Shown: positions 31,430-40,860 of the stretch, in pieces
Layout of the letters: each line of letters opens with the position of its first letter
Numbering within the stretch: the first letter of the stretch is position 1
Virus record (IMG/VR): IMGVR_UViG_3300035670_000198
Coordinates: 1 to 63,922 of that record
Reading direction: 5' to 3' (one strand)
DNA: 63,922 nucleotides
Source of the DNA: a virus
Taxonomy: Duplodnaviria; Caudoviricetes
The notes under the pieces: model-generated
The model's database searches: none
Told to the model about the DNA's origin: nothing
Seen by the model: the letters and a program-made list of their open reading frames with translations, nothing else
Made by a program: the position numbers and the translations under genes

Positions 31430-31436
31430 TATTTAG
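31430..31436 (-). promoter_or_regulatory. Late promoter variant (CTAAATA) for the oxygenase/DUF6065 genes
   Basis: Overlaps the stop of the 884-aa gene; GGAG SD downstream. Confidence 0.6.
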
Positions 31437-34087
31437 TCGATCTTTACAACTATTTGACCGCCTGTAGGTACAACTACTGGGTAGTTGGCAGAGTCAGGAT
31501 ACACATATGTATCTACTGGTGTTGGTGGAACATATGGTGCTGGTTCTCCAGCATTGTATCCTGCAATATTTCCTGGAGCATTATAGTTTGCGCTTGCGCC
31601 AGCACCACCTGGGAAATAAACACCAAGAACATTTGTTGGGCTTCCTGCTGTACCAAGAATTGGTGGGTTATACGTTGCAGGATTGCCAGCATTATATGAT
31701 GCGGCTGTATTACCTGAATAAGTTGCTACGTTTCTTGGATTATAAGTTGCAGGATTACCAGCATTGTATGAAGCAATATTATTGCCAGTAAATGTTGCAG
31801 GTGAAGGTGGATTATAACTTGCTGGATTGCCAGCGTTGTAATTAGCAAGATTGTTGCCAGTATAAGTTGCAGGATTTCCAGCATTGTATGAAGCAGCGCT
31901 GCCAGCATTATAATTGGCAAGAGTGTTTCCTGAATAAGAAGCAATGCTTCCAGGATTGTAAGATGCGACATTTCCTGCGTTATATCCAGAAACATTGTTG
32001 CCAGTATAACTTGCAGCAGAGCCAGCATTATACACAGCAGACCCAGGATTATATGCTGCTATGTTTCTTGGATTATACGTCGCTGTTGTGCCAGCGTTGT
32101 AGTTAGCGTTGTTGCCAACATAACCAGAAATATTTGTTGGATTATATGATGCTGGTGATCCAGAATTATAATTTGCTGATCCAGGATTATAACCAGAAAC
32201 GTTTCTTGGATTATATGAAGCAACAGTTCCAGGATTATAGTTTGCACTATTGCCAGAATATCCAGAAACATTGTTGCCAGTATAAGAAGCAGGTGAACCT
32301 GTGTTGTAATTAGCAGAACCTGGATTATAATTTGCTACTGTCGGTGGATTGTATGAAGCAACAGTTCCAGGATTATAGTTAGCAGATCCAGGATTATAGT
32401 TTGCTACTGTTGGTGGGTTGTAACTTGCTGGAGTTCCAGCATTGTAATTCGCTGATCCTGGATTATAGCTGGCAACATTTCTTGGATTATAAGTTGCAAC
32501 TGTTCCAGCGTTATAGTTTGCTGTACCTGGATTGTAATTCGCAATAGTTCTTGGATTATAAGTTGCTACAGTACCAGCATTATAGTTCGCAGTTCCTGTG
32601 TTATAATTTGCCACTGTTGGTGGGTTATATGACGCTGGGTTTCCAGGATTATAATTTGCTACACCTGGATTGTATCCGCCAGTCGCGTTTCCAGGTGATC
32701 CTGGAATTGATGAGTAATAAATGTAGACATACAAATTGATTGCTTCGTGCGGACCTGCTGCTGGATTACCATATGCATCGGTTGGGGCTGGAGCTGGTCC
32801 TGATCCAGATTGCGGATAATATTGAAATCCAATTTGAACAGGATCTTCATAGAAGAAATAATCAAATCCAAAATCATGAACATAGAATGTTCCAAACCAG
32901 TTTGTTGCTGTCGGTGGATTATATACTTGAGTGTTGCTAGAATAGCCAGCAATGTTTCTTGTATTATAAGTTGCGGGATTTCCAGGAGTAAAGTTGGCGT
33001 TGTTACCAGAATATCCAGCAACGTTTCTTGGATTATAAGTCGCCGCCGTTCCAGGATTATAGTTTGCTGTGTTACCAGAATACCCAGCAACGTTTCTTGG
33101 ATTATATGTTGCTGCAGTGCCAGGATTGTAATTTGCAGTATTTCCTGAGTATCCTGCTACGTTGCGAGGATTATATGATGCTGGATTGCCTGGAGTGAAG
33201 TTGGCATTGTTACCAGAATATCCAGCAACGTTACGAGGATTATATGTTGCAGCGTTTCCTGGAGTAAAGTTGGCGTTGTTACCAGAATATCCAGAAACAT
33301 TTGTAGGATTATAACTTGCTGGAGAACCAGTATTGTAGTTAGCCGAGCCAGGATTATAACCAGAAACGTTTCGCGGATTATATGATGCTACATTGCCCGC
33401 ATTATAATTTGCACTATTCCCAGAATATCCAGCAATATTGTTGCCAGTATAAGATGCTGGAGAACCTGTGTTATATGTCGCGCTTCCCGCGTTATATCCT
33501 GCTACGTTTCTTGGATTGTAAGTAGCAGGAGTGCCAGCATTATAGTTGGCATTGTTGCCAGTAAATCCAGAAACGTTTGTCGGATTATATGATGCGATGT
33601 TACCAGTGTTATAACCAGCAACGTTGCGAGGATTGTAACTGGCAATATTATTGCCAGAATAAGACGCTGCGCTTCCTGAGTTATAATTTGCATTGTTGCC
33701 ACTATATGAGGCGACATTGTTGCCAGAATAGGAAGCAGGATTCCCAGAATTATAGTTGGCATTGTTGCCAGTATAAGATGCTGGGACTGGCGGATTGTAA
33801 CTTGCTGGGTTGCCAGCGTTATAGGTCGCAGCATTATTGCCAGAATAAGATGCCGTGGTTCCAGCGTTATATGTTGCAGGGCTACCTGAATTGTAGGTTG
33901 CTGCGCTGTTTCCTGTATATGTGGCTGGTGTTCCTGGAGTTGCGTTAGTACCTGTGCCTGCGCGTCCAGAGACTGAAGCATTGAATCGACCGTATGGGAT
34001 CGTTATGCTGGATGTATTATTGAAAGTGGTTGTGTTTCGAAATGCCGAACCGATCCAGCTTTTCAACAGGTCTGTGTGTATGGGCAT
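31433..34087 (-). CDS. Tyr/Asn/Gly/Pro 7-8-mer repeat protein (884 aa) with a central non-repeat domain
   Basis: N-cap IPYGR..VSGRAG; 44 repeat units, ~70-aa insert, 44 units; C-cap GVYFPGG...VPTGGQIVVKID. Confidence 0.9.
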   Translation of the reverse strand: MPIHTDLLKSWIGSAFRNTTTFNNTSSITIPYGRFNASVSGRAGTGTNATPGTPATYTGNSAATYNSGSPATYNAGTTASYSGNNAATYNAGNPASYNPPVPASYTGNNANYNSGNPASYSGNNVASYSGNNANYNSGSAASYSGNNIASYNPRNVAGYNTGNIASYNPTNVSGFTGNNANYNAGTPATYNPRNVAGYNAGSATYNTGSPASYTGNNIAGYSGNSANYNAGNVASYNPRNVSGYNPGSANYNTGSPASYNPTNVSGYSGNNANFTPGNAATYNPRNVAGYSGNNANFTPGNPASYNPRNVAGYSGNTANYNPGTAATYNPRNVAGYSGNTANYNPGTAATYNPRNVAGYSGNNANFTPGNPATYNTRNIAGYSSNTQVYNPPTATNWFGTFYVHDFGFDYFFYEDPVQIGFQYYPQSGSGPAPAPTDAYGNPAAGPHEAINLYVYIYYSSIPGSPGNATGGYNPGVANYNPGNPASYNPPTVANYNTGTANYNAGTVATYNPRTIANYNPGTANYNAGTVATYNPRNVASYNPGSANYNAGTPASYNPPTVANYNPGSANYNPGTVASYNPPTVANYNPGSANYNTGSPASYTGNNVSGYSGNSANYNPGTVASYNPRNVSGYNPGSANYNSGSPASYNPTNISGYVGNNANYNAGTTATYNPRNIAAYNPGSAVYNAGSAASYTGNNVSGYNAGNVASYNPGSIASYSGNTLANYNAGSAASYNAGNPATYTGNNLANYNAGNPASYNPPSPATFTGNNIASYNAGNPATYNPRNVATYSGNTAASYNAGNPATYNPPILGTAGSPTNVLGVYFPGGAGASANYNAPGNIAGYNAGEPAPYVPPTPVDTYVYPDSANYPVVVPTGGQIVVKID

Positions 34088-34133: not shown

Positions 34134-35102
34134 TCAATCGTATCGATCAGGAATTTCCCAGTCATTGACCACATCTGGAGGGAGAAGAATACTCCTCGAG
34201 ATGGCTCTATTTTCCAGTTTTCGATTGATATAATCGACGCCAGAATACTTACGATATTCTTCGAAGAACTCGTCGCTGAAACTATCCAAGAAATTGCGAA
34301 ATTCTTTTCTAGATTTTTCTCGATTTCTATTGAGTTGTTCGTGCGAGACAACCTGATTCACATCTTGTTTAGTGATATATCGGTGTGTATCTGTCAAGTG
34401 ATAGCAATGAATTCTTCTTGGAGCGCAAAGTTTATATCCAGCCGCAAATGAAGCCAGCGTCATATATTGTTCTTCGCCCTCAAAGAAAATGCGAGGATTC
34501 ATCCCAACGTTTCTCAACCAATCACTATGTGTGAAGAAGTTTCCAGCAAATAAGTGAATGGTTGGGTGTAGATGATCTTGTGTCGCTTCTCGAAACTCTC
34601 CGTGAGCGCCAAGAATATAATTCTCATGGAAAGACCAATATCCTGCTTTGACAGTAATATTGCCATGACGATCAAGGAATGGCGTTCCATCCTCTTGCAT
34701 TCTAAATGAACCACAATTCGCGTCAATGATGATTCGATCAGTTTGATGCTGTTGCATTCCAAGTTTGAAATCATTGATCAAATAGCGATCCCAATTCTTA
34801 TCAAAAAGCATATGAGAGTCTACTTGATAGTAGAACTCTTCATCATCGAGTTGAATCGAATTTAGATGTCTTGCCCAACCAACGCCATCTGAGAATTTGG
34901 CATCAATTCTTTTATATCGAACATTTTTATTTTGAGCAAGATCTGGATATTTGGCTTCTAGGCTATCAGCATAGTCAGTTTGTTCAAAGACGCCATAAGT
35001 TATTTTTGTCAGTTGAGATTGCATCTCCATCATATTGCGTAGAGTTTGGTGGAGAAGCGGATCTCTATATGAGACGATACTGACAAAAATTTTCATTAGC
35101 AA
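34134..35102 (-). CDS. GT60-family GlcNAc transferase ([Skp1]-hydroxyproline N-acetylglucosaminyltransferase-like)
   Basis: IFVSIVSYRD...GVFEQ...GVGWAR...EEFYYQVDSHMLFDKNWD...FAGNFF...FFEGEE...AGY...YH. Confidence 0.88.
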   Translation of the reverse strand: MLMKIFVSIVSYRDPLLHQTLRNMMEMQSQLTKITYGVFEQTDYADSLEAKYPDLAQNKNVRYKRIDAKFSDGVGWARHLNSIQLDDEEFYYQVDSHMLFDKNWDRYLINDFKLGMQQHQTDRIIIDANCGSFRMQEDGTPFLDRHGNITVKAGYWSFHENYILGAHGEFREATQDHLHPTIHLFAGNFFTHSDWLRNVGMNPRIFFEGEEQYMTLASFAAGYKLCAPRRIHCYHLTDTHRYITKQDVNQVVSHEQLNRNREKSRKEFRNFLDSFSDEFFEEYRKYSGVDYINRKLENRAISRSILLPPDVVNDWEIPDRYD

Positions 35103-35671
35103 CCCCTCTTACCCATTACCCATACGTTCAATGACTTTCTCGTTCCAGAAGTGATTGGTACGATTCTTGACGGCATCCATGGAGCATAAAATACTACGCT
35201 ACCAAGATTTGGTTTGATTGGCATGACTTCATTCGGATCGCCAGTATTCATGATCTCAATTTCACCCCCCAAATATTCTTCTGGGTCAGTAAGCATAATC
35301 GATGCGCAGATCTTTCGTTCCCAATTTAGAAACGCGAAGTCAACATCGTAATGCCAACCATATTCTTGATTCTTTTTATATTTGGCATATTGAAATGCAT
35401 CGAAGCCGTCGATATCATACATGAAGAAATCGATATTGATACGACCAATAAGTCCAGAAAACTTATCAAAAAGCCACTGAGTGTCTTGATTTGGCGGTAG
35501 GACTGCTAGATCTGCTTGATTCTTGCCATTTGTTTGTTCTTTAGAAAACATAAGTTTCTTTTCTAAAGAAGTTACTTTATCGACTTCTTCTTGCGTCAGA
35601 AAGTCTGAAACAACAGCAAATTTAGAGAGGATACGATTGTATTTGACAACTTGAGGCATAACGAACTCCAC
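35096..35671 (-). CDS. 2OG-Fe(II) oxygenase paralog lacking the distal His
   Basis: IDGFDAFQY...YGWHYD...RKICASIMLTDP...MPSRIVPITSGTRKSL; clear paralog of 30790..31392. Confidence 0.88.
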   Translation of the reverse strand: MEFVMPQVVKYNRILSKFAVVSDFLTQEEVDKVTSLEKKLMFSKEQTNGKNQADLAVLPPNQDTQWLFDKFSGLIGRINIDFFMYDIDGFDAFQYAKYKKNQEYGWHYDVDFAFLNWERKICASIMLTDPEEYLGGEIEIMNTGDPNEVMPIKPNLGSVVFYAPWMPSRIVPITSGTRKSLNVWVMGKRGC

Positions 35672-35695
35672 TATTCATGATCAACTATTATAACC

Positions 35696-35703
35696 TATTT
35701 ATT
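35696..35703 (-). promoter_or_regulatory. Late promoter variant (AATAAATA)
   Basis: Overlaps the stop of the 538-aa gene; GGAG SD downstream. Confidence 0.55.
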
Positions 35704-37315
35704 CGATTCTTACAACTATTTGTCCACCTGATGGAACTTCAATTGCGTGATTTCGATAATCAATTTCTTGGTTCTCAAAGTAATAACTAATCTCTTGCTC
35801 ATTGACATAAACGCCAGGAGCGCAAACACCACCACCTGGGAAGTAAACACCAAACGCATATCCAGGTTCTCCAGGAGTTCCTGGGATTGGGAAGTTATAA
35901 GTGCTTGCACTTCCTGGATTATACGTTGCTACAAAGTTTCCAGTGTAACTTGCAATATTGTTGCCAGTATATGTTGCTGGATTACCAGAGTTATAACCAG
36001 AAACAAAGTTAGAAGTGTAAGACGCTGGGTTGCCAATATTATATGATGGAGGTGGTGCTGGATTGTATCCACTAATTGTGTTGCCAGTATATGTTGCTGG
36101 GCTACCAGAATTGTAGTTGGCATTGTTGCCAGTATATCCACTGATCGTATTTCCAGAGAAACCGCCCACAAACGTTTCATTATATGTTGCTGGACTTCCA
36201 GCGTTATAATTGGCATTATTTCCAGTATATGCACCAATTACATTTCCAGAGAAACCACCAACAAACGTTGGATTGTATGTGGCTGGATTACCTTCATTGT
36301 ATGTTGCTGGATTGCCGCCAGGGGCAAATCCAGCAGAGAAGTTTCCTGTGTAATTTCCAGCATTACCTGTATTATAATTTACATTGTTGCCTGAATAGTT
36401 ACCAACAGTAGAAGGATTATAGTTTGCTATGTTACCAATATAATCCGCAACGTTTCCTGGATTATAGTTGGCAGGTGGGCTTGCTGATGGCGTACACTCG
36501 TAATTGGTAACTGTATATTCAATAATTTCTGGAGTTCCAGGAGGTGGACCATAAAAACTTGTTGGAGTTGGGCAGCTTGGATCGCTTCCGCTTCCATAAT
36601 AAGTGCCGCTACCAATTGGGCTACCATCAAACGCAAATACGATTGAATAATTTGTAGTAGAGTTCCAAGTCACACCACCAGCAGCAGGATTATACCCTGC
36701 AACACTTGTTGGGTTATAACCTGAAATGTTTGTTGGGTTGTATGTAGCAACATTTCTTGGGTTGTATGATGCAATGTTTCCAGGAACATAGAAAGCATTT
36801 CCTGGAGTAAATTCTAGAGGATTATACCCAGTGATTGTTGGTTCATTATATGTCGCAGGATTACCGCCAGAAAGAACTGGATTGTATGTTGCATTGTTAC
36901 CAATGTAACCATCTAACGTGCCAGCATTATATTCAGCAGTTGCAGTTCCAGAAGTTCCAGGCTCATTACTTATTACACTGTATGTAATATAAATGTTTTG
37001 ACCAATAGCCTCATGCGGACCTGCTGCTGGATTGGCGTAAACATTTACTGGATCAGGCAGCGTGGGCGTTGTCAAAAATTGAGGATAGTATTGAAATCCA
37101 ATTTGTACTGGATCATCGAAGAAAAACTCAAGCTGTCCATTGTCATTACTAAAAAATGATGCGCTCCAATACACCAATCCACCGCCTGATGGTGGATTAT
37201 ATACCTGCACGTTTCCAGTATACGAAGCAACACCTTCGTTATAACCTGCAAGATTTCCTCCAGTACTTGGATTATATGTCGCAGGATTTCCTGGTTCGTA
37301 GATAGCAGTAGACAT
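35699..37315 (-). CDS. Tyr/Asn/Gly/Pro repeat protein, C-terminal half of a split paralog
   Basis: Starts MSTAIYEPG; two non-repeat inserts; C-cap GVYFPGG...VPSGGQIVVRIE homologous to the 884-aa C-cap; no N-cap. Confidence 0.88.
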   Translation of the reverse strand: MSTAIYEPGNPATYNPSTGGNLAGYNEGVASYTGNVQVYNPPSGGGLVYWSASFFSNDNGQLEFFFDDPVQIGFQYYPQFLTTPTLPDPVNVYANPAAGPHEAIGQNIYITYSVISNEPGTSGTATAEYNAGTLDGYIGNNATYNPVLSGGNPATYNEPTITGYNPLEFTPGNAFYVPGNIASYNPRNVATYNPTNISGYNPTSVAGYNPAAGGVTWNSTTNYSIVFAFDGSPIGSGTYYGSGSDPSCPTPTSFYGPPPGTPEIIEYTVTNYECTPSASPPANYNPGNVADYIGNIANYNPSTVGNYSGNNVNYNTGNAGNYTGNFSAGFAPGGNPATYNEGNPATYNPTFVGGFSGNVIGAYTGNNANYNAGSPATYNETFVGGFSGNTISGYTGNNANYNSGSPATYTGNTISGYNPAPPPSYNIGNPASYTSNFVSGYNSGNPATYTGNNIASYTGNFVATYNPGSASTYNFPIPGTPGEPGYAFGVYFPGGGVCAPGVYVNEQEISYYFENQEIDYRNHAIEVPSGGQIVVRIE

Positions 37316-39645
37316 TAGTAAGTTAGAACCCCATTAGCATAGAAATTTGGGCTAGACTTATACTTATTATTGAATGTATAGACCGTATATGGATAGTTGA
37401 TTGAAACAATCGCATTGATTCGAACTGCGTTGCCATTCTTATCAACAAAACTATCGCCCACTTGTACCTTCGCCACATCACCCAAAGATCTATATCCTTG
37501 CATTGTCAAGTTTGGATTCATAGAAGCATAACCCTTTCCAATGACGAAGAATGGGTGATCATCAGACGCTCTGACAGAAATGCTATTTTCTAGAATGTAT
37601 TCAAACATCACTCTGTTCACGCGAGTGATAATCTCTGAAACTTCGTTTGTTTCATGCTCGCCTGTATCTGGGTTATACGACAAGATTTGATCACCAACTT
37701 GAATTGTTTCAATTGCCTTGGTTGAACCATCAGCCATTGAGATGAGCGTGTCACCAGCAAAGCAGCAACCACCGCCACCAATTGGTGTTGGCTCATTATA
37801 ACCACCAATTGTTGGTTCGTTATACGTCGCCACTGTGCCTTCGTTGTATGTTGCAGCAGTGCCTTCGTTGTATAGTGCAGTTCCTGCGTTATAAACCTCA
37901 GTGCTTCCACTTGGATTATATCCTGAAATAGTATTTCCAGTGTAACTTCCTACTGTGCCTGGATTATAATTTGCGATATTTCCAGCAACATAATTTGCAA
38001 TTGAGCCTTCGTTATAAATTCCTGTGGCGTTATTGCTGATGTAATTAGCAATGGTTCCCTCATTATAAATTTGTGCACCAGGAGTATTGAATGTTGCGGT
38101 AAAGTTTCCAGTATAAGTTGCAGGATTACCTGTATTATAATCCGCAATTCCTGGATTATACACAGCATTACCGCTATTGTATCCAGCAACACTAGTTGGA
38201 TTATATGTTGCTGGACTTCCAGTATTATAATCACCAACCCCTGTATTGTACAACGCATTACCGCTATTGTAGCCACCAATATTGGTTGGAGTGAATGACG
38301 CTGGATTGCCAGTATTATAGTTTGGATCAGCAGATCCAGGTGGATTATATCCAGAAATTGTAGCAAAGGAGCAGTCAGTGAATGGAGTGCCTGGAGTAAA
38401 TACTGCTGAATTGCCAACAAAGCTGTTTATATTACCAGCATTATAGATAGCAGTGCCTTGATTATAATTGGCATTATTATCTGCATAAGTAATTGCATTA
38501 CCAGCAGTAAATCCTGAAGGGTTGCCAGTATTATAATTCGCATTGTTTCCAGTATATCCACCAATGATATTGCCACCATAAGTGGCTGGTGTTCCAACAT
38601 TATATGCGCTTGCTGTTCCTGGATTATATCCAGAAATATTTGTTGCATTATAACTGCTTGGATTGCCAGTATTATAGTTTGCACTGTTGCCAGTATATGT
38701 TGCAGGATTTCCTGGAACTGCTGGAGAGCAATCGTAGTAGATGATATAAGAATAAACTTGTGCTCCACCACCAACCACGAATCCTGGGAAATTTGGAAAA
38801 TTGCTTGGTGTTACAACAGTCGTTGAGTCTCTCAGAGGACATCCAACAGAAGTCCCCGTACCCTCAAAGGCGAGTTGCTCATAATAGAAATAATCTTCGT
38901 CGAAAATTGTTTCAATAATAACACCATACCAGTTTACAGTGGCTGGATTATATGTGAGTGGACTACCTGCGTTATATCCTGAAATTGTATTACCAGTAAA
39001 CCCAACAGGATTGCCAGTATTATAATTCGCATTATTGCCTGAATAAGCAGAGATACTATTTGAACCGTTGACATATGTTGCAGGATTTCCTGGAGTATAC
39101 GTCGCAGTTCCAGTATTATATCCATTGATATTTCTTACATTATAACCACCAGGTGTAGCGGCATTATAAGTTGTGCCGACACCAACGTTATAACCTGCAA
39201 CATTTGTTGCGTTATATCCAGAAATGTTGCCAGCATTATATTGAGCGCCACCTGCGCTTCCTGAGTTATATCCTGTTATGACTGCTGGGTTGAATCCAGT
39301 CCCACAAGGATTATAGATTGCGTTGTTACCACCACTAGCTGGAATTTCAGTATTTCCAGTATATGACGCAGGATTACCAAAATTATAATTAGCACTGTTA
39401 CCAGTATATGAGGCAGTGAATCCTGGATTATATGTTGCAGCAACGCCAGAGTTATATGAGGCTGCGCTGTTGCCAGTGTAAGTTGCAATGTTTCCAGGAA
39501 CTGGACAGTTACCTGATCCACCACGACCTGAAACGTAAAGACGATTTCGACCATATGGAACAAACATATTTCCATATGTGTTGAATACAGTGGAACCGCG
39601 TGTAGCGGTCCATGTTTTTTCTAATTCATCAATACGCTTTGGCAT
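37315..39645 (-). CDS. Tyr/Asn/Gly/Pro repeat protein, N-terminal half of a split paralog, with C-terminal Hint domain
   Basis: N-cap VPYGR..VSGRGG homologous to the 884-aa N-cap; ends in a Hint domain; no C-cap. Confidence 0.9.
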   Translation of the reverse strand: MPKRIDELEKTWTATRGSTVFNTYGNMFVPYGRNRLYVSGRGGSGNCPVPGNIATYTGNSAASYNSGVAATYNPGFTASYTGNSANYNFGNPASYTGNTEIPASGGNNAIYNPCGTGFNPAVITGYNSGSAGGAQYNAGNISGYNATNVAGYNVGVGTTYNAATPGGYNVRNINGYNTGTATYTPGNPATYVNGSNSISAYSGNNANYNTGNPVGFTGNTISGYNAGSPLTYNPATVNWYGVIIETIFDEDYFYYEQLAFEGTGTSVGCPLRDSTTVVTPSNFPNFPGFVVGGGAQVYSYIIYYDCSPAVPGNPATYTGNSANYNTGNPSSYNATNISGYNPGTASAYNVGTPATYGGNIIGGYTGNNANYNTGNPSGFTAGNAITYADNNANYNQGTAIYNAGNINSFVGNSAVFTPGTPFTDCSFATISGYNPPGSADPNYNTGNPASFTPTNIGGYNSGNALYNTGVGDYNTGSPATYNPTSVAGYNSGNAVYNPGIADYNTGNPATYTGNFTATFNTPGAQIYNEGTIANYISNNATGIYNEGSIANYVAGNIANYNPGTVGSYTGNTISGYNPSGSTEVYNAGTALYNEGTAATYNEGTVATYNEPTIGGYNEPTPIGGGGCCFAGDTLISMADGSTKAIETIQVGDQILSYNPDTGEHETNEVSEIITRVNRVMFEYILENSISVRASDDHPFFVIGKGYASMNPNLTMQGYRSLGDVAKVQVGDSFVDKNGNAVRINAIVSINYPYTVYTFNNKYKSSPNFYANGVLTY
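37318..37764 (-). other. Hint (Hedgehog/intein) domain, 149 aa, no endonuclease, no terminal His-Asn
   Basis: GGGGC|CFAGDTLISMADGSTKAIETIQVGD...SDDHPF...VGD...VYTF...NFYANGVLTY*. Confidence 0.9.
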
Positions 39646-39651
39646 CTTTTA

Positions 39652-40860
39652 TTATCTGAAGTCTTTTACAGCCAAAGTACCAACGTATGTTGATCCACCG
39701 TCATATGATGTAAATGTCCATAGATCTTTGCTGCTTGATCCAGTTGTCGATGGTGGAATTGCGCCACCAGACCAATAAACAGTATTAGCAAAAGAATAGG
39801 TTCTTCCACCAGAACCGTCTTGAATTACGATGAGCGAGAATGTCACAGCAAGACCATTAGATGGTGCATTGACAAAGGTAAAGGTCGTTGGTCCATTCAA
39901 TGTATACTTGAACCAGTTTGATGAACTCAAGTCTACACTTACTGCACCTGATACAGTGCTTGACGAAATGAAATCTTTTGTTGCTTTGAAGTTTGCTGTT
40001 ACGTTGCCCATGACAACGTTGGCTGGAAGATTATTATACTCGAGTGACCATGTATTTTCTGATTCGTCCCAATGCAAATCAGCATTTGCTGTTCCCGCAG
40101 TTTGTCCGCGACGAACTCGGAAGTATCCATCTCCGCCACCAGTAGCAGAGAATCTCAATGAGTATACGTCTGCATCCGTAACAGCAGGAGCAAGGATAGG
40201 ATCTGTAACAGAAAGTGTTCTCACATATGCTGTGATGATGTTTGCGTTGTCAATATTAGCAAGATTACGGACAATTAGATTACCTGTTGCAGTGTTACTT
40301 GCAACATTTAGATTATATGCAAAGACATTATTCGTAACATTCAGCGTGCCAGTAACATTTACATTCGCAAAGATAAAGGTATTTGGATGAATGTTCAGTG
40401 TTGCGAACTGTTCTGTGTTTGCGATATTCACTGTTCCAGCATTGATCGATACAGTTACCACATTGACATTGATAATACCATGAGAGACATTCGTGAAACT
40501 AATATTAGAACCATAGAAAGCCGTGTTTGTATTTACAGTGAATAGATCTGTTTCACCCATTCTTCTAAACTCAATATCACCAGCATCGACATAAACATGA
40601 TTCGTAGAATTGTCAACTTCGATATTGTGAACAGTTAGAGTTCCATCGATATTCGTGTCGTCTTTGACGTCAAGGATTACTCCGCCAGCAGAGTTTGCGA
40701 TGCGAACGTAACCCTCTGAGATCACAACGTTGCCAAAATGCTTGACGAAGTCGCCGCGACAAATTTCGTTCACGTCGTTTGCCACGAGGTTGTCGTTGAT
40801 ACGCCATTGATTGAACGTATTTGACACCGTTGTTAGGTAAACATTTATTGTATTTGCCAT
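39652..40860 (-). CDS. Beta-rich fibre/spike protein with C-terminal adaptor domain
   Basis: N-terminal NTFNQWRI anchor; Asn/Val beta repeats; C-terminus homologous to that of the 1883-aa protein. Confidence 0.8.
   Translation of the reverse strand: MANTINVYLTTVSNTFNQWRINDNLVANDVNEICRGDFVKHFGNVVISEGYVRIANSAGGVILDVKDDTNIDGTLTVHNIEVDNSTNHVYVDAGDIEFRRMGETDLFTVNTNTAFYGSNISFTNVSHGIINVNVVTVSINAGTVNIANTEQFATLNIHPNTFIFANVNVTGTLNVTNNVFAYNLNVASNTATGNLIVRNLANIDNANIITAYVRTLSVTDPILAPAVTDADVYSLRFSATGGGDGYFRVRRGQTAGTANADLHWDESENTWSLEYNNLPANVVMGNVTANFKATKDFISSSTVSGAVSVDLSSSNWFKYTLNGPTTFTFVNAPSNGLAVTFSLIVIQDGSGGRTYSFANTVYWSGGAIPPSTTGSSSKDLWTFTSYDGGSTYVGTLAVKDFR

Follow-up and report, generated by a model that had tools for sequence, protein, structure and literature searches.

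The locus described here lies within the window, i.e. the whole stretch of 63,922 nucleotides of phage DNA that was analysed, and all genes at this locus are on the minus strand. Its features are as follows.

31433..34087, minus: 884-aa paralogue in a single piece, with an N-terminus like that of the 776-aa protein and C-terminal 545 residues like the 538-aa protein.
34134-35102, minus: glycosyltransferase, between the fibre genes.
35096-35671, minus: 2OG-Fe(II) oxygenase, between the fibre genes (the pair spans 34134..35671).
35699..37315, minus: 538-aa ORF beginning M-S-T-A-I-Y-E-P-G-N, with the repeat unit from its very start and a C-terminal domain common with the 884-aa paralogue.
37313..37317, minus: TAATG, in which the TAA of the 776-aa ORF (37315-37317) and the ATG of the 538-aa ORF (37313-37315) overlap by one base.
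37315..39645, minus: 776-aa ORF, with an N-terminal anchor (MPKRIDELEKTW...), NYN-type repeats, a globular insert, repeats again, a Gly4 linker and a C-terminal HINT domain.
37318..37344, minus: block-G-like end FYANGVLTY, in which Tyr776 (37318-37320) occupies the penultimate-His position of HN-type relatives and Asn is lacking.
37318..37764, minus: HINT domain, Cys628-Tyr776, 149 aa, from a profile match, an AlphaFold2 model and Foldseek.
37555..37566, minus: block-B motif S694-D-D-H697, whose His, like the Pro after it, does not vary among the 42 family members aligned.
37762..37767, minus: Cys627 (37765-37767; position -1) and Cys628 (37762-37764; HINT Cys1), with the predicted scissile/thioester bond between the two; Phe629 is at 37759-37761.
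37768..37779, minus: linker Gly623-Gly626, read from the sequence, directly N-terminal of the scissile bond.

The 538-aa ORF is read in a different frame from the 776-aa ORF, whose protein ends in ...NFYANGVLTY. The overlap of the stop with the start of a Met-Ser-Thr protein, to which the first-pass annotation had drawn attention, is confirmed, and two other IMG/VR contigs (L002 and L003) have an identical ...ANGVLTY-TAATG-MSTEIY layout. The same annotation had allowed for an assembly error at this point. However, Logan contigs from the runs X4, X5 and X6 as well as X1 (three studies in all) bridge positions 37311-37320 with zero indels, where the check was made on assembled contigs and not raw reads and X1 is possibly the source sample of this DNA; the TAA stop and the restart are thus real. 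The suggestion that the two proteins represent the halves of a split fibre holds in part. Residues 340-884 of the paralogue align with the entire 538-aa protein and its N-terminal part with the 776-aa protein, but the latter has in addition about 400 residues of its own. The oxygenase and glycosyltransferase genes are conserved as a pair in L002 and in a further phage, L044, and in L003 there are ORFs matching this pair in size and position (an untranslated comparison). The fibre-segment proteins of the 538-aa type begin with Met1-Ser2 in 10/10 cases.

The 776-aa protein ends in a complete HINT domain, and the evidence for this is far beyond what can be expected by chance. Seven Pfam families match this protein at E<=0.1, and on the HINT stretch the sole model exceeding its cut-off is AXH (PF08517; E 1.4e-10, 42.1 bits versus a cut-off of 33). 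The same stretch is matched below the cut-off by Hint (E 1.2e-5), Hom_end_hint (whose profile position 1 aligns with residue 628), PT-HINT, Intein_splicing, Vint and Hint_2, the last of which (E 0.03, 15.1 bits versus 28.4) we take to be a model of the B-type bacterial intein-like (BIL) domains. When a profile made from eight family members was compared with PDB, the BIL2 domain of BUBL1 from Tetrahymena thermophila (6y75/6tmm) was matched over the whole length with an E value of 3.4e-13, whereas the AXH structures 1v06 and 3qve matched 27 residues (E 0.008-0.009), and we read the Pfam result for AXH as a cross-hit among related folds. The AlphaFold2 model of the domain has a mean pLDDT of 93.1, and in Foldseek it gave 65 matches at E<=0.001, with BIL2 first (TM 0.81/0.87), then the BIL domain 2lwy of C. 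thermocellum and inteins, and with Hedgehog also among the top matches. The domain has the horseshoe fold of the HINT superfamily, the nucleophile Cys628 and the block-B motif ending in His697. The first-pass description of a 149-aa domain with Cys1 and SDDH, ending in NFYANGVLTY, is thus borne out, as is the absence from it of the terminal His-Asn while the N-terminal nucleophile and the block-B (S/T)xxH are kept; due to this, N-terminal thioester chemistry alone is possible.

The placement of this domain is clarified by a survey of 159 database proteins. In 44 of these the HINT domain reaches the final residue, which is Tyr in all cases (44/44) and aligns with the penultimate His of the HN-type relatives. 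At the 39 complete loci TAA directly follows the last residue (39/39), this residue being Tyr in 37 and Ala in two. Among 42 aligned family members, which share 32-83% identity, Cys13, Phe14, Thr18, Asp81, His82 and Pro83 (P0001 numbering) are invariant or at least 90% conserved, and 37 of 42 countable starts read CC, with a Cys at -1. At the linker position there are either Gly runs of 3-10 residues or a CPxC motif. The block-F His position is occupied by His in 0/44 terminal domains versus 83/173 HN-type domains, and its absence from the terminal domains is consistent with a loss confined to the C-terminal cleavage apparatus. Further, the +1 residue of the HN-type relatives is Lys in 99/148 and Ser, Thr or Cys in 8/148, indicating that the clade is BIL-like and not intein-like.

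As a module, the terminal HINT caps N-terminal proteins that are unrelated to one another (viz. MPKR-type fibres, to which the 776-aa protein belongs, MSANY/MSAIF-type fibre segments, ~300-aa MTLQSSGAISMSQINAEFGG proteins, S8 proteases and Gly-rich proteins), and NYN-repeat fibre segments and small fibre-like proteins are also among the phage proteins capped by it. The genes downstream are likewise varied. TAATG overlaps recur at the complete loci with unrelated downstream genes, and the second residue is Ser or Thr in 4 of 11 distinct types of downstream ORF, the others starting with MY, MA, MK, MI or MN. At 9 of the 39 loci no same-strand ORF of at least 60 aa begins within 150 nt downstream of the HINT gene, and in L019, the closest MPKR-type relative beyond the immediate group, the next protein begins MTVPTDQNELNPGGGG, a start unlike that of the 538-aa protein. 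In contrast, proteins with the MPKR N-terminus retain the HINT domain in 4/4 database proteins, and since a premature stop in the linker would suffice to remove the domain, its retention argues for selection. The family is widespread and uncharacterised, and the HINT in it is always at the extreme C-terminus. In the literature searchable here, no Tyr-ending terminal HINT family capping phage fibres was found, only ordinary phage inteins.

A further indication comes from the phage L044, in which an unrelated-looking second HINT-fold domain replaces the CCF-type HINT on an orthologous fibre segment. The first ~190 residues of P0016 (332 aa, with a CCF-type HINT) and of a 340-aa protein of L044 are nearly identical (BLASTP, 59% identity over 313 aligned positions), and C-terminal of the poly-Gly run the L044 protein has a different domain, for which there is no Pfam model. 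The predicted structure of this domain (pLDDT 73.6) has as its top Foldseek matches exclusively inteins, BIL and Hedgehog domains (TM 0.62-0.72). It carries the pattern Ser-Val-Ser...THN, and in 36/36 relatives ...THN is followed by a tail of 3-23 residues. What the two kinds of domain visibly share is the HINT fold and end motifs linked to processing and not a conserved surface sequence, and the outcome common to both may well be excision of the HINT.

Of the known HINT domains, BIL2 (6tmm, 6y75) is the best match to the phage domain both by profile and by structure. As in the phage domain, its Cys thioester is N-terminal and comes after a Gly-rich N-extein end, and its block G is of the form ...NFFANGVL, but its terminal Asn is still present (it was crystallised as C1A-N143A) and a C-extein follows, whereas the phage domain ends one residue earlier with Tyr and has Cys at -1. 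Further, according to PMC8616854, BIL2 lies between ubiquitin-like domains and conjugates them, whereas the phage domain caps proteins of virion type. The BIL domains (2lwy) share the HINT fold and are second-best in both structure and sequence; in PMC7664689 and PMC7765530 they are described as occurring in variable, non-conserved proteins without a +1 nucleophile and as carrying out mainly cleavage. A-type BILs are characterised by a conserved His-Asn and the lack of a +1 nucleophile, and the phage domain, having neither the His nor the Asn, is not of this type, although an A-type-like pattern (HN, then mostly Lys) is seen in its nearest HN-type relatives. The B-type BILs have the intein motifs except for the C-terminal one (PMC7765530), and the phage pattern fits this description, the comparison being with the description only. 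The Hedgehog (Hog) domain (1at0) resembles the phage domain in being C-terminal, in carrying out no reaction beyond the N-S acyl shift, which takes place at a Gly-rich/Cys-Phe junction and frees the N-terminal domain, and in lacking Asn and splicing. However, Hog has after its HINT a sterol- or adduct-recognition region (as stated in PMC7765530), whereas the phage protein ends at block G, the last HINT strand; Hog also transfers its N-terminal domain to cholesterol, and its structural match is weaker (TM 0.65). Canonical and split inteins share with the phage domain the fold, the block A Cys and the block B (S/T)xxH, but the latter is without His-Asn, an in-frame +1 nucleophile and a C-extein, and its host protein is not conserved. 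A class 1 intein is rejected, as Tyr stands in place of His, Asn is absent in 44/44 and TAA follows directly in 39/39, and a split intein is rejected, as the entire fold is in the 776-aa ORF and the 538-aa ORF, which begins with a fibre repeat, has no Pfam match. In terms of function, a possible analogy is with the intramolecular chaperones of Peptidase S74 type, C-terminal domains of fibres and tailspikes which remove themselves after assembly, although in fold and chemistry these are unrelated to the phage HINT. Peptidase S74 acts by a Ser-Lys dyad, and no match to Peptidase S74/ICA is present among the Pfam families matching the 776-aa protein at E<=0.1.

Based on these observations, the most likely explanation, which we hold with moderate confidence, is that the HINT is a removable C-terminal cap, or maturation module, of phage fibre segments, acting by an N-S acyl shift followed by self-cleavage. 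The steps proposed are drawn from HINT chemistry in general and the residues conserved here. The fibre part would fold first, after which Cys628, assisted by the block-B His697, would attack the carbonyl of Cys627, and the resulting thioester would be resolved by water or a small nucleophile. The products would be the ~16-kDa HINT and a mature ~627-residue fibre segment with the C-terminus ...PIGGGGC-COOH, which the 538-aa protein, made by TAATG-coupled translation, would join non-covalently. Neither C-terminal cleavage nor cis-splicing is possible, since His-Asn and a C-extein are both absent. In favour of a self-cleaving cap are the whole-length match to BIL2 together with the confident model and its Foldseek neighbours, the uniform Tyr end and TAA, the conserved catalytic residues, the modular hosts, the domain swap in L044 and the persistence of the HINT in all MPKR proteins. 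However, plain hydrolysis leaves unexplained the near-invariant Cys at -1 and the invariant terminal Tyr, the fibre-segment partners all start with Met-Ser, and BIL2, the closest solved relative, spends its thioester on conjugation and not on hydrolysis. To our knowledge, no HINT domain has been described before as a cap or chaperone.

The strongest competing explanation, although rather unlikely, is that in place of water an amine or hydroxyl belonging to a second protein reacts with the Cys627~Cys628 thioester, and that the fibre segment thereby becomes covalently attached to this partner. The partner could be the alpha-amine/Ser2 of the co-translated 538-aa protein, as the first-pass annotation proposed, or else a virion-protein Lys or a group on the host surface. 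Section 2.4 of PMC8616854 describes BIL2 as forming an isopeptide between a Lys epsilon-amine and a C-terminus and conjugating its N-extein to other proteins, and a title in the reference list of PMC7664689 names BIL-mediated ligation without nucleophilic side chains. Ligation is also consistent with the open site facing Cys1 that results from the absence of a C-extein in the family, the flexible Gly run N-terminal of the scissile bond, the co-synthesis of the two proteins implied by TAATG coupling, the invariant M1 and S2 of the 538-type proteins and the presence of HINT on every MPKR-type protein. However, the downstream gene is not conserved, often lacks Ser or Thr at its second position and at some loci has no counterpart nearby on the same strand; the protein following in L019 does not start like the 538-aa protein; the S8 protease fusions have no obvious partner; L044 has at the equivalent junction a HINT that brings its own HN and tail; and no conserved acceptor was identified. 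With the cap being modular as well, templated trans-ligation to the downstream Ser2 is unsupported. Its full form, in which a Met-Ser segment docked via the shared repeat attacks the Cys627 thioester, the HINT is released and a covalent fibre of ~1164 residues results, appears improbable, and this applies also to the broader form, a thioester 'harpoon' fixing the fibre to a virion-protein Lys or a host surface group.

It is similarly improbable that the HINT is a non-catalytic structural domain, remaining as a knob or adaptor at the end of the proximal fibre segment in the manner of an AXH-like binding module. Such a role could be suggested by AXH being the sole Pfam model above its cut-off and by the need of fibre segments for docking surfaces, but Cys1 and the block-B His are retained in members down to 32% identity, the AXH structures cover only a small part of what BIL2 matches in full, and the very different HINT on the orthologue has in common with this one the fold and processing motifs. 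Slightly less probable still is a selfish or neutral cassette which recombines among hypervariable fibre genes and is tolerated through self-removal without any role for the phage. The occurrence of BIL domains in hypervariable regions of non-conserved proteins (PMC7765530), the sharp module boundaries at the Gly run, the uniform TAA and the overlaps with unrelated downstream genes could all be interpreted in this manner. However, any stop arising in the linker could rid the protein of a terminal passenger, and still the HINT is kept in the MPKR-type proteins and in many diverged hosts with its catalytic residues conserved, and no homing endonuclease is associated with it. An artefact or remnant (an assembly error, a decayed cis intein, a split intein with its C-half in the 538-aa ORF, or a frameshift or readthrough fusion) is very improbable, for although the HINT lies between two halves jointly resembling the one-piece paralogue, the stop is identical in L002 and L003 and a TAA is found at all complete loci, the junction is bridged without indels in three studies, the fold is complete within the 776-aa ORF with no HINT match in the 538-aa protein, the HN-type relatives favour Lys at +1, and among proteins of 426-1358 aa no fused form was found.

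HINT domains are familiar from three settings, namely inteins, Hedgehog processing and the bacterial intein-like domains. Should the phage domain do no more than cleave, it would amount to a small C-terminal tag that cuts itself off in a single turnover. If instead it ligates, it would be an ATP-free protein ligase occurring in nature and of interest to biotechnology, and if the proteins ligated are fibre segments, this would be natural template-directed protein ligation during virion assembly. Further, the presence of two HINT-fold families at an equivalent position suggests that phages may quite generally use self-removing HINT caps when assembling their receptor-binding fibres.

The C-terminal 149 residues (Cys628-Tyr776) of the 776-aa fibre-like protein constitute a real and complete HINT, i.e. 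intein-like, domain, and the sequence elements listed in the first-pass annotation (the Cys-Cys pair, SDDH, the NFYANGVLTY end, the TAATG overlap and the domain length) are all correct as read from the sequence. The entry to the domain reads P-I-G-G-G-G-C627-C628-F-A-G-D-T-L-I, its block-B stretch is A-S694-D-D-H697-P-F-F, and the protein ends ...S-P-N-F-Y-A-N-G-V-L-T-Y776. It is one of three paralogous large proteins encoded in the window, which share a YN.G..A.Y repeat and globular inserts (e.g. DPVQIGFQYYPQ); in the 776-aa protein the repeat is of an eight-residue type, ...YN.G..A.Y..., and forms long arrays. The relevant features are:

31433-34087, minus strand: 884-aa paralogue, in one piece
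35699-37315, minus strand: 538-aa ORF directly downstream of the 776-aa ORF, a paralogous repeat protein
37313-37315, minus strand: ATG of the 538-aa ORF, protein start MSTAIYEPGNPATYNP
37315-37317, minus strand: TAA stop of the 776-aa ORF, its last base common to the next ATG
37315-39645, minus strand: 776-aa ORF, with N-terminal region MPKRIDELEKTW..., repeats, globular insert, more repeats and HINT

All window genes are on the minus strand and they include a T4-like myophage structural module (major head protein, portal, sheath, large terminase, baseplate wedge and hub); the record fragment (63.9 kb) represents 36% of the full genome by the CheckV estimate. Outside the HINT, no Pfam or PHROG match is seen in any of the three repeat proteins, and the repeat seems to represent a kind of fibre repeat not described before. 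Searches with the whole 776-aa protein (tblastn) and with positions 35000-40000 (megablast) gave no match in 50,697 GenBank phage records, to which the low-complexity filter, and possibly a lack of near-identical records in this set, may contribute. Between the repeat-fibre genes (34134-35671, minus strand) are genes for a 2OG-Fe(II) oxygenase and a glycosyltransferase, which may modify the Asn/Pro-rich repeats by hydroxylation and glycosylation; this pair recurs in the contigs L002 and L044, and L003 has ORFs that match in size and position. Upstream of the 776-aa gene lies one for a 402-aa protein (39652-40860, minus strand), whose C-terminus matches tail-fibre PHROGs (phrog_9017, 9.1e-14); the protein is kept in L002 and L019, and an ORF of equal size and position is present in L003. 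None of the public sequencing runs listed with the window stretch is recorded as RNA, which says nothing on expression.

Seven related Pfam models fall on residues 626-750, of which AXH passes its cut-off, while Hint, Hom_end_hint, PT-HINT, Intein_splicing, Vint and Hint_2 each fall short of their own. A profile built from eight family members matches, over the full domain length, the BIL2 (bacterial intein-like) domain of the Tetrahymena thermophila BUBL1 locus with an E value of 3.4e-13, followed by a Clostridium thermocellum BIL domain (3.7e-9) and then by inteins. The AlphaFold2 model based on a 42-sequence alignment (mean pLDDT 93.1) likewise has BIL2 as its top Foldseek match (TM 0.81 by query and 0.87 by target), ahead of 2lwy and the DnaB, gp41-1 and DnaE inteins, with Hedgehog 1at0 lower. 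As the whole fold is inside the 776-aa ORF and the 538-aa protein has no Pfam match, a split intein is ruled out. When the HINT alone was compared by tblastn with GenBank phage records, 59 records were found, none of them reaching 60% identity and most being ordinary inteins of RNR, UvsX/RecA, terminase and polymerase genes; in the single one inspected, a Ruminococcus phage (H2), the match is internal to a hypothetical protein and not terminal.

A word-indexed protein search identified eleven database proteins (P0002-P0012), in which the HINT is C-terminal, with the ending ...G(V/M)L(T/V)Y, and a twelfth match of an ordinary intein-like kind. Exhaustive searching of 1.84 billion cluster representatives with phmmer returned 6333 matches at E<=1e-3, including 46 at E<=1e-30, and the scoring of 159 proteins with the family profile separated two classes of domains, terminal and internal. 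The 44 terminal domains all reach the last residue of the protein and all end in Tyr, which occupies the same profile position as the His of His-Asn in the internal class; His is present at the block-F His position in none of them. A Cys-Cys start is seen in 37 of the 42 countable terminal domains, the exceptions being four register shifts around CPxCC and one Thr-Cys (P0029). The internal class comprises 173 domain copies, often in tandem, with as many as seven in one protein, and His-Asn follows 148 of these. Since Asn is followed by Lys in 99 of these 148 copies and by Ser, Thr or Cys in only 8, the whole clade is BIL-like rather than intein-like. Proteins P0014, P0015, P0020, P0026, P0030 and others have 2-7 tandem HINTs with junctions of the form ...LVHN-K-(G)-C-F. 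The window-type HINT is a derived form, from which His-Asn and everything beyond it have been lost.

At the DNA level, 41 loci were available, namely the window, 15 loci from viral and 25 from metagenomic sequences (a few are one contig in two collections), and two of the 41 run off the contig. In all 39 remaining loci the last residue (Tyr in 37 loci, Ala in two) is directly followed by TAA. The overlap TAC-TAA-TG recurs before unrelated genes (MST.., MKNLT.., M(E/K)xKEV.., MSVPT.. and MNVR..) and it may belong to the module boundary. The terminal HINT is found on five kinds of N-terminal protein, to which a Gly run or CPxC motif links it:

MPKR-type repeat fibres, like the 776-aa protein: HINT in 4/4 database proteins with that N-terminus
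Repeat proteins starting MSANYTPGN... or MSAIFEPGN...: start resembling that of the 538-aa protein
Proteins of ~300 aa: start MTLQSSGAISMSQINAEFGRGNN...
Subtilisin-type S8 proteases: 680-717 aa
Gly-rich proteins: ~550 aa

In the small-protein branch (loci L008-L016 and L022-L034, proteins P0012, P0033, P0038 etc.), C-P-x-C immediately precedes Cys1 (CPxCCF), and this thioredoxin-like CxxC beside the catalytic Cys might put the reaction under redox or metal control.

Passages of PMC7664689 and PMC7765530 indicate that a HINT lacking His-Asn can carry out the N-S acyl shift and is incapable of its own C-terminal cleavage or of splicing. An N-S acyl shift at the Cys627-Cys628 bond would yield a thioester, and its resolution by water or a small nucleophile would presumably release a fibre segment ending ...GGGGC and a free HINT of ~16 kDa; in this way the HINT would be a removable cap or maturation device on the fibre protein. 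On the basis of the conserved residues and HINT chemistry, self-cleavage in this role is the reading towards which we lean. It leaves unexplained why Cys is nearly invariant at position -1 and why the terminal Tyr is invariant. In the proposed cap role the domain is similar in function to the self-cleaving C-terminal chaperone domains of tailspikes; however, the domains are unrelated.

The thioester could instead be used for ligation to another protein, which we consider unlikely, and about half of this limited likelihood belongs to the version in the first-pass annotation, where the 776-aa part is joined in trans to Ser2 of the 538-aa protein. Section 2.4 of PMC8616854 describes that the BIL2 thioester is converted to an isopeptide bond, conjugating the N-extein to other proteins without ATP, and as BIL2 is the closest solved relative of the HINT, trans-ligation would not be exotic chemistry. 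The open C-terminal side of the terminal family, the Gly linker ahead of the scissile bond, and the translational coupling of the 776-aa and 538-aa genes also suit ligation, as does the start of the segment proteins: ten aligned proteins of the 538 and segment types all begin with Met1 and Ser2 and continue with Y..PGN, a sequence pattern which makes the fibre group more suggestive of ligation than the family as a whole. However, the comparative data oppose ligation as the general function of the terminal family. If the thioester were meant to react with the N-terminus of the following gene product, that gene should travel with the HINT, and it does not: there are 11 different types of downstream ORF, and 9 of the 39 loci are without a same-strand ORF of at least 60 aa starting within 150 nt. 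Ser or Thr follows Met in 4 of the 11 types (MST.., MTVPT.., MSEIY.., MSVPT..), too few and too near ordinary usage for meaning; the other starts are MYAELTIDQ/MASYVELTIDQ/MAQYVELSMDQ, MKNLT, M(E/K)xKEV, MAGV, MI(E/D)W, MNVR and a doubtful TTG. The original interpretation is partly supported: the capacity of the HINT to form an N-terminal thioester is upheld by fold, residues and HINT chemistry, but the dedicated downstream partner is not. Complex prediction for the HINT with residues 2-125 of the 538-aa protein gave no answer (score 0.00 in both runs) and counts neither way. A conserved ORF of ~110 aa starting M(Y/A)xxEL(T/S)(I/M)DQG directly follows many small-protein-type HINT genes (L006, L010/L011/L031, L023, L028-L030, L034), and its product could be a partner or assembly factor.

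The related proposal that the two ORFs are halves of a split protein is partly right in that the 884-aa paralogue resembles both: its residues 340-884 are colinear with the 538-aa protein over its full length (41% identity, E 5e-85) and its N-terminal part aligns with that of the 776-aa protein (E 1e-72). The pair therefore looks like an elongated, two-gene form of the paralogue with the HINT at the break; however, the 776-aa protein has ~400 residues of its own (repeats and insert).

Among 42 sequences extending down to 32% identity, His82 and Pro83 (P0001 numbering) are invariant and Cys13, Phe14, Thr18 and Asp81 are conserved in at least 90%; a purely structural role of the HINT is improbable, and its being a neutral passenger somewhat more so. 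To artefact or remnant explanations of the stop and restart we give almost no credence: the ...ANGVLTY-TAATG-MSTEIY... junction and the gene order are repeated in two other IMG/VR contigs, and positions 37311-37320, checked for an assembly error, are bridged without indels or listed substitution by public-run sequences from three studies, which are assembled contigs, not raw reads, one run possibly being the source sample. A fusion by frameshift or readthrough was rejected, as the 538-aa frame is offset and no slippery site is visible by eye at TAC-TAA-TG; such a fusion would also remain without His-Asn.

A DNA pattern for the MSANYTPGN start led to one further viral contig, L044, with the gene order of the window (oxygenase, glycosyltransferase and then an 818-aa paralogue). 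Its 340-aa segment protein (MSAIFEPGN...) continues after ten Gly with SVSIAAFMP...FCENQCYAAGD...YIFTHN-TGVGKS, and a copy of this SVS...THN domain is also present in the preceding ORF. The domain (Gly run, SVS..AFMP, FCENQCY, ...(I/W)THN and a tail) is seen in:

L044, 7083-7523, minus strand: second HINT-fold domain
L044, 8125-8847, minus strand: second HINT-fold domain
L046, 3624-5402, plus strand: second HINT-fold domain

The L044 domain matches no Pfam model and no PDB sequence, and three lines point to a predicted HINT fold: its nearest protein-language-model neighbours include, just behind two unannotated bacterial clusters, viral Hint/AXH clusters (a lead only), the AlphaFold2 model from three sequences (pLDDT 73.6) has this fold, and the top Foldseek matches are all inteins, BIL domains or Hedgehog (TM 0.62-0.72). 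In all 36 retrieved database relatives the C-terminus is ...THN followed by 3-23 further residues, a tail with Lys near its end in most. N-terminal types carrying this domain include MTLQTSG... and MSAIYEPGN..., which are shared with the Cys-Cys-Phe HINT. Over roughly the first 190 residues, protein P0016 (332 aa) hardly differs from the L044 340-aa protein, but its C-terminus is a Cys-Cys-Phe...Tyr HINT in place of the L044 domain; therefore, two very different HINTs can replace each other at the end of an orthologous fibre segment.

Literature searches, in which the key BIL papers were covered by title, yielded for phages only ordinary inteins and nothing on terminal HINTs of fibre proteins. 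The window HINT represents an Asn-less, Tyr-terminated and always-terminal branch of BIL-like HINTs, specialised on phage fibre-type proteins, and the second, unannotated HINT-fold family is a sister phenomenon of this terminal cap. Judged from their sequences, the outcome common to both domains would be the excision of the HINT from the fibre C-terminus.
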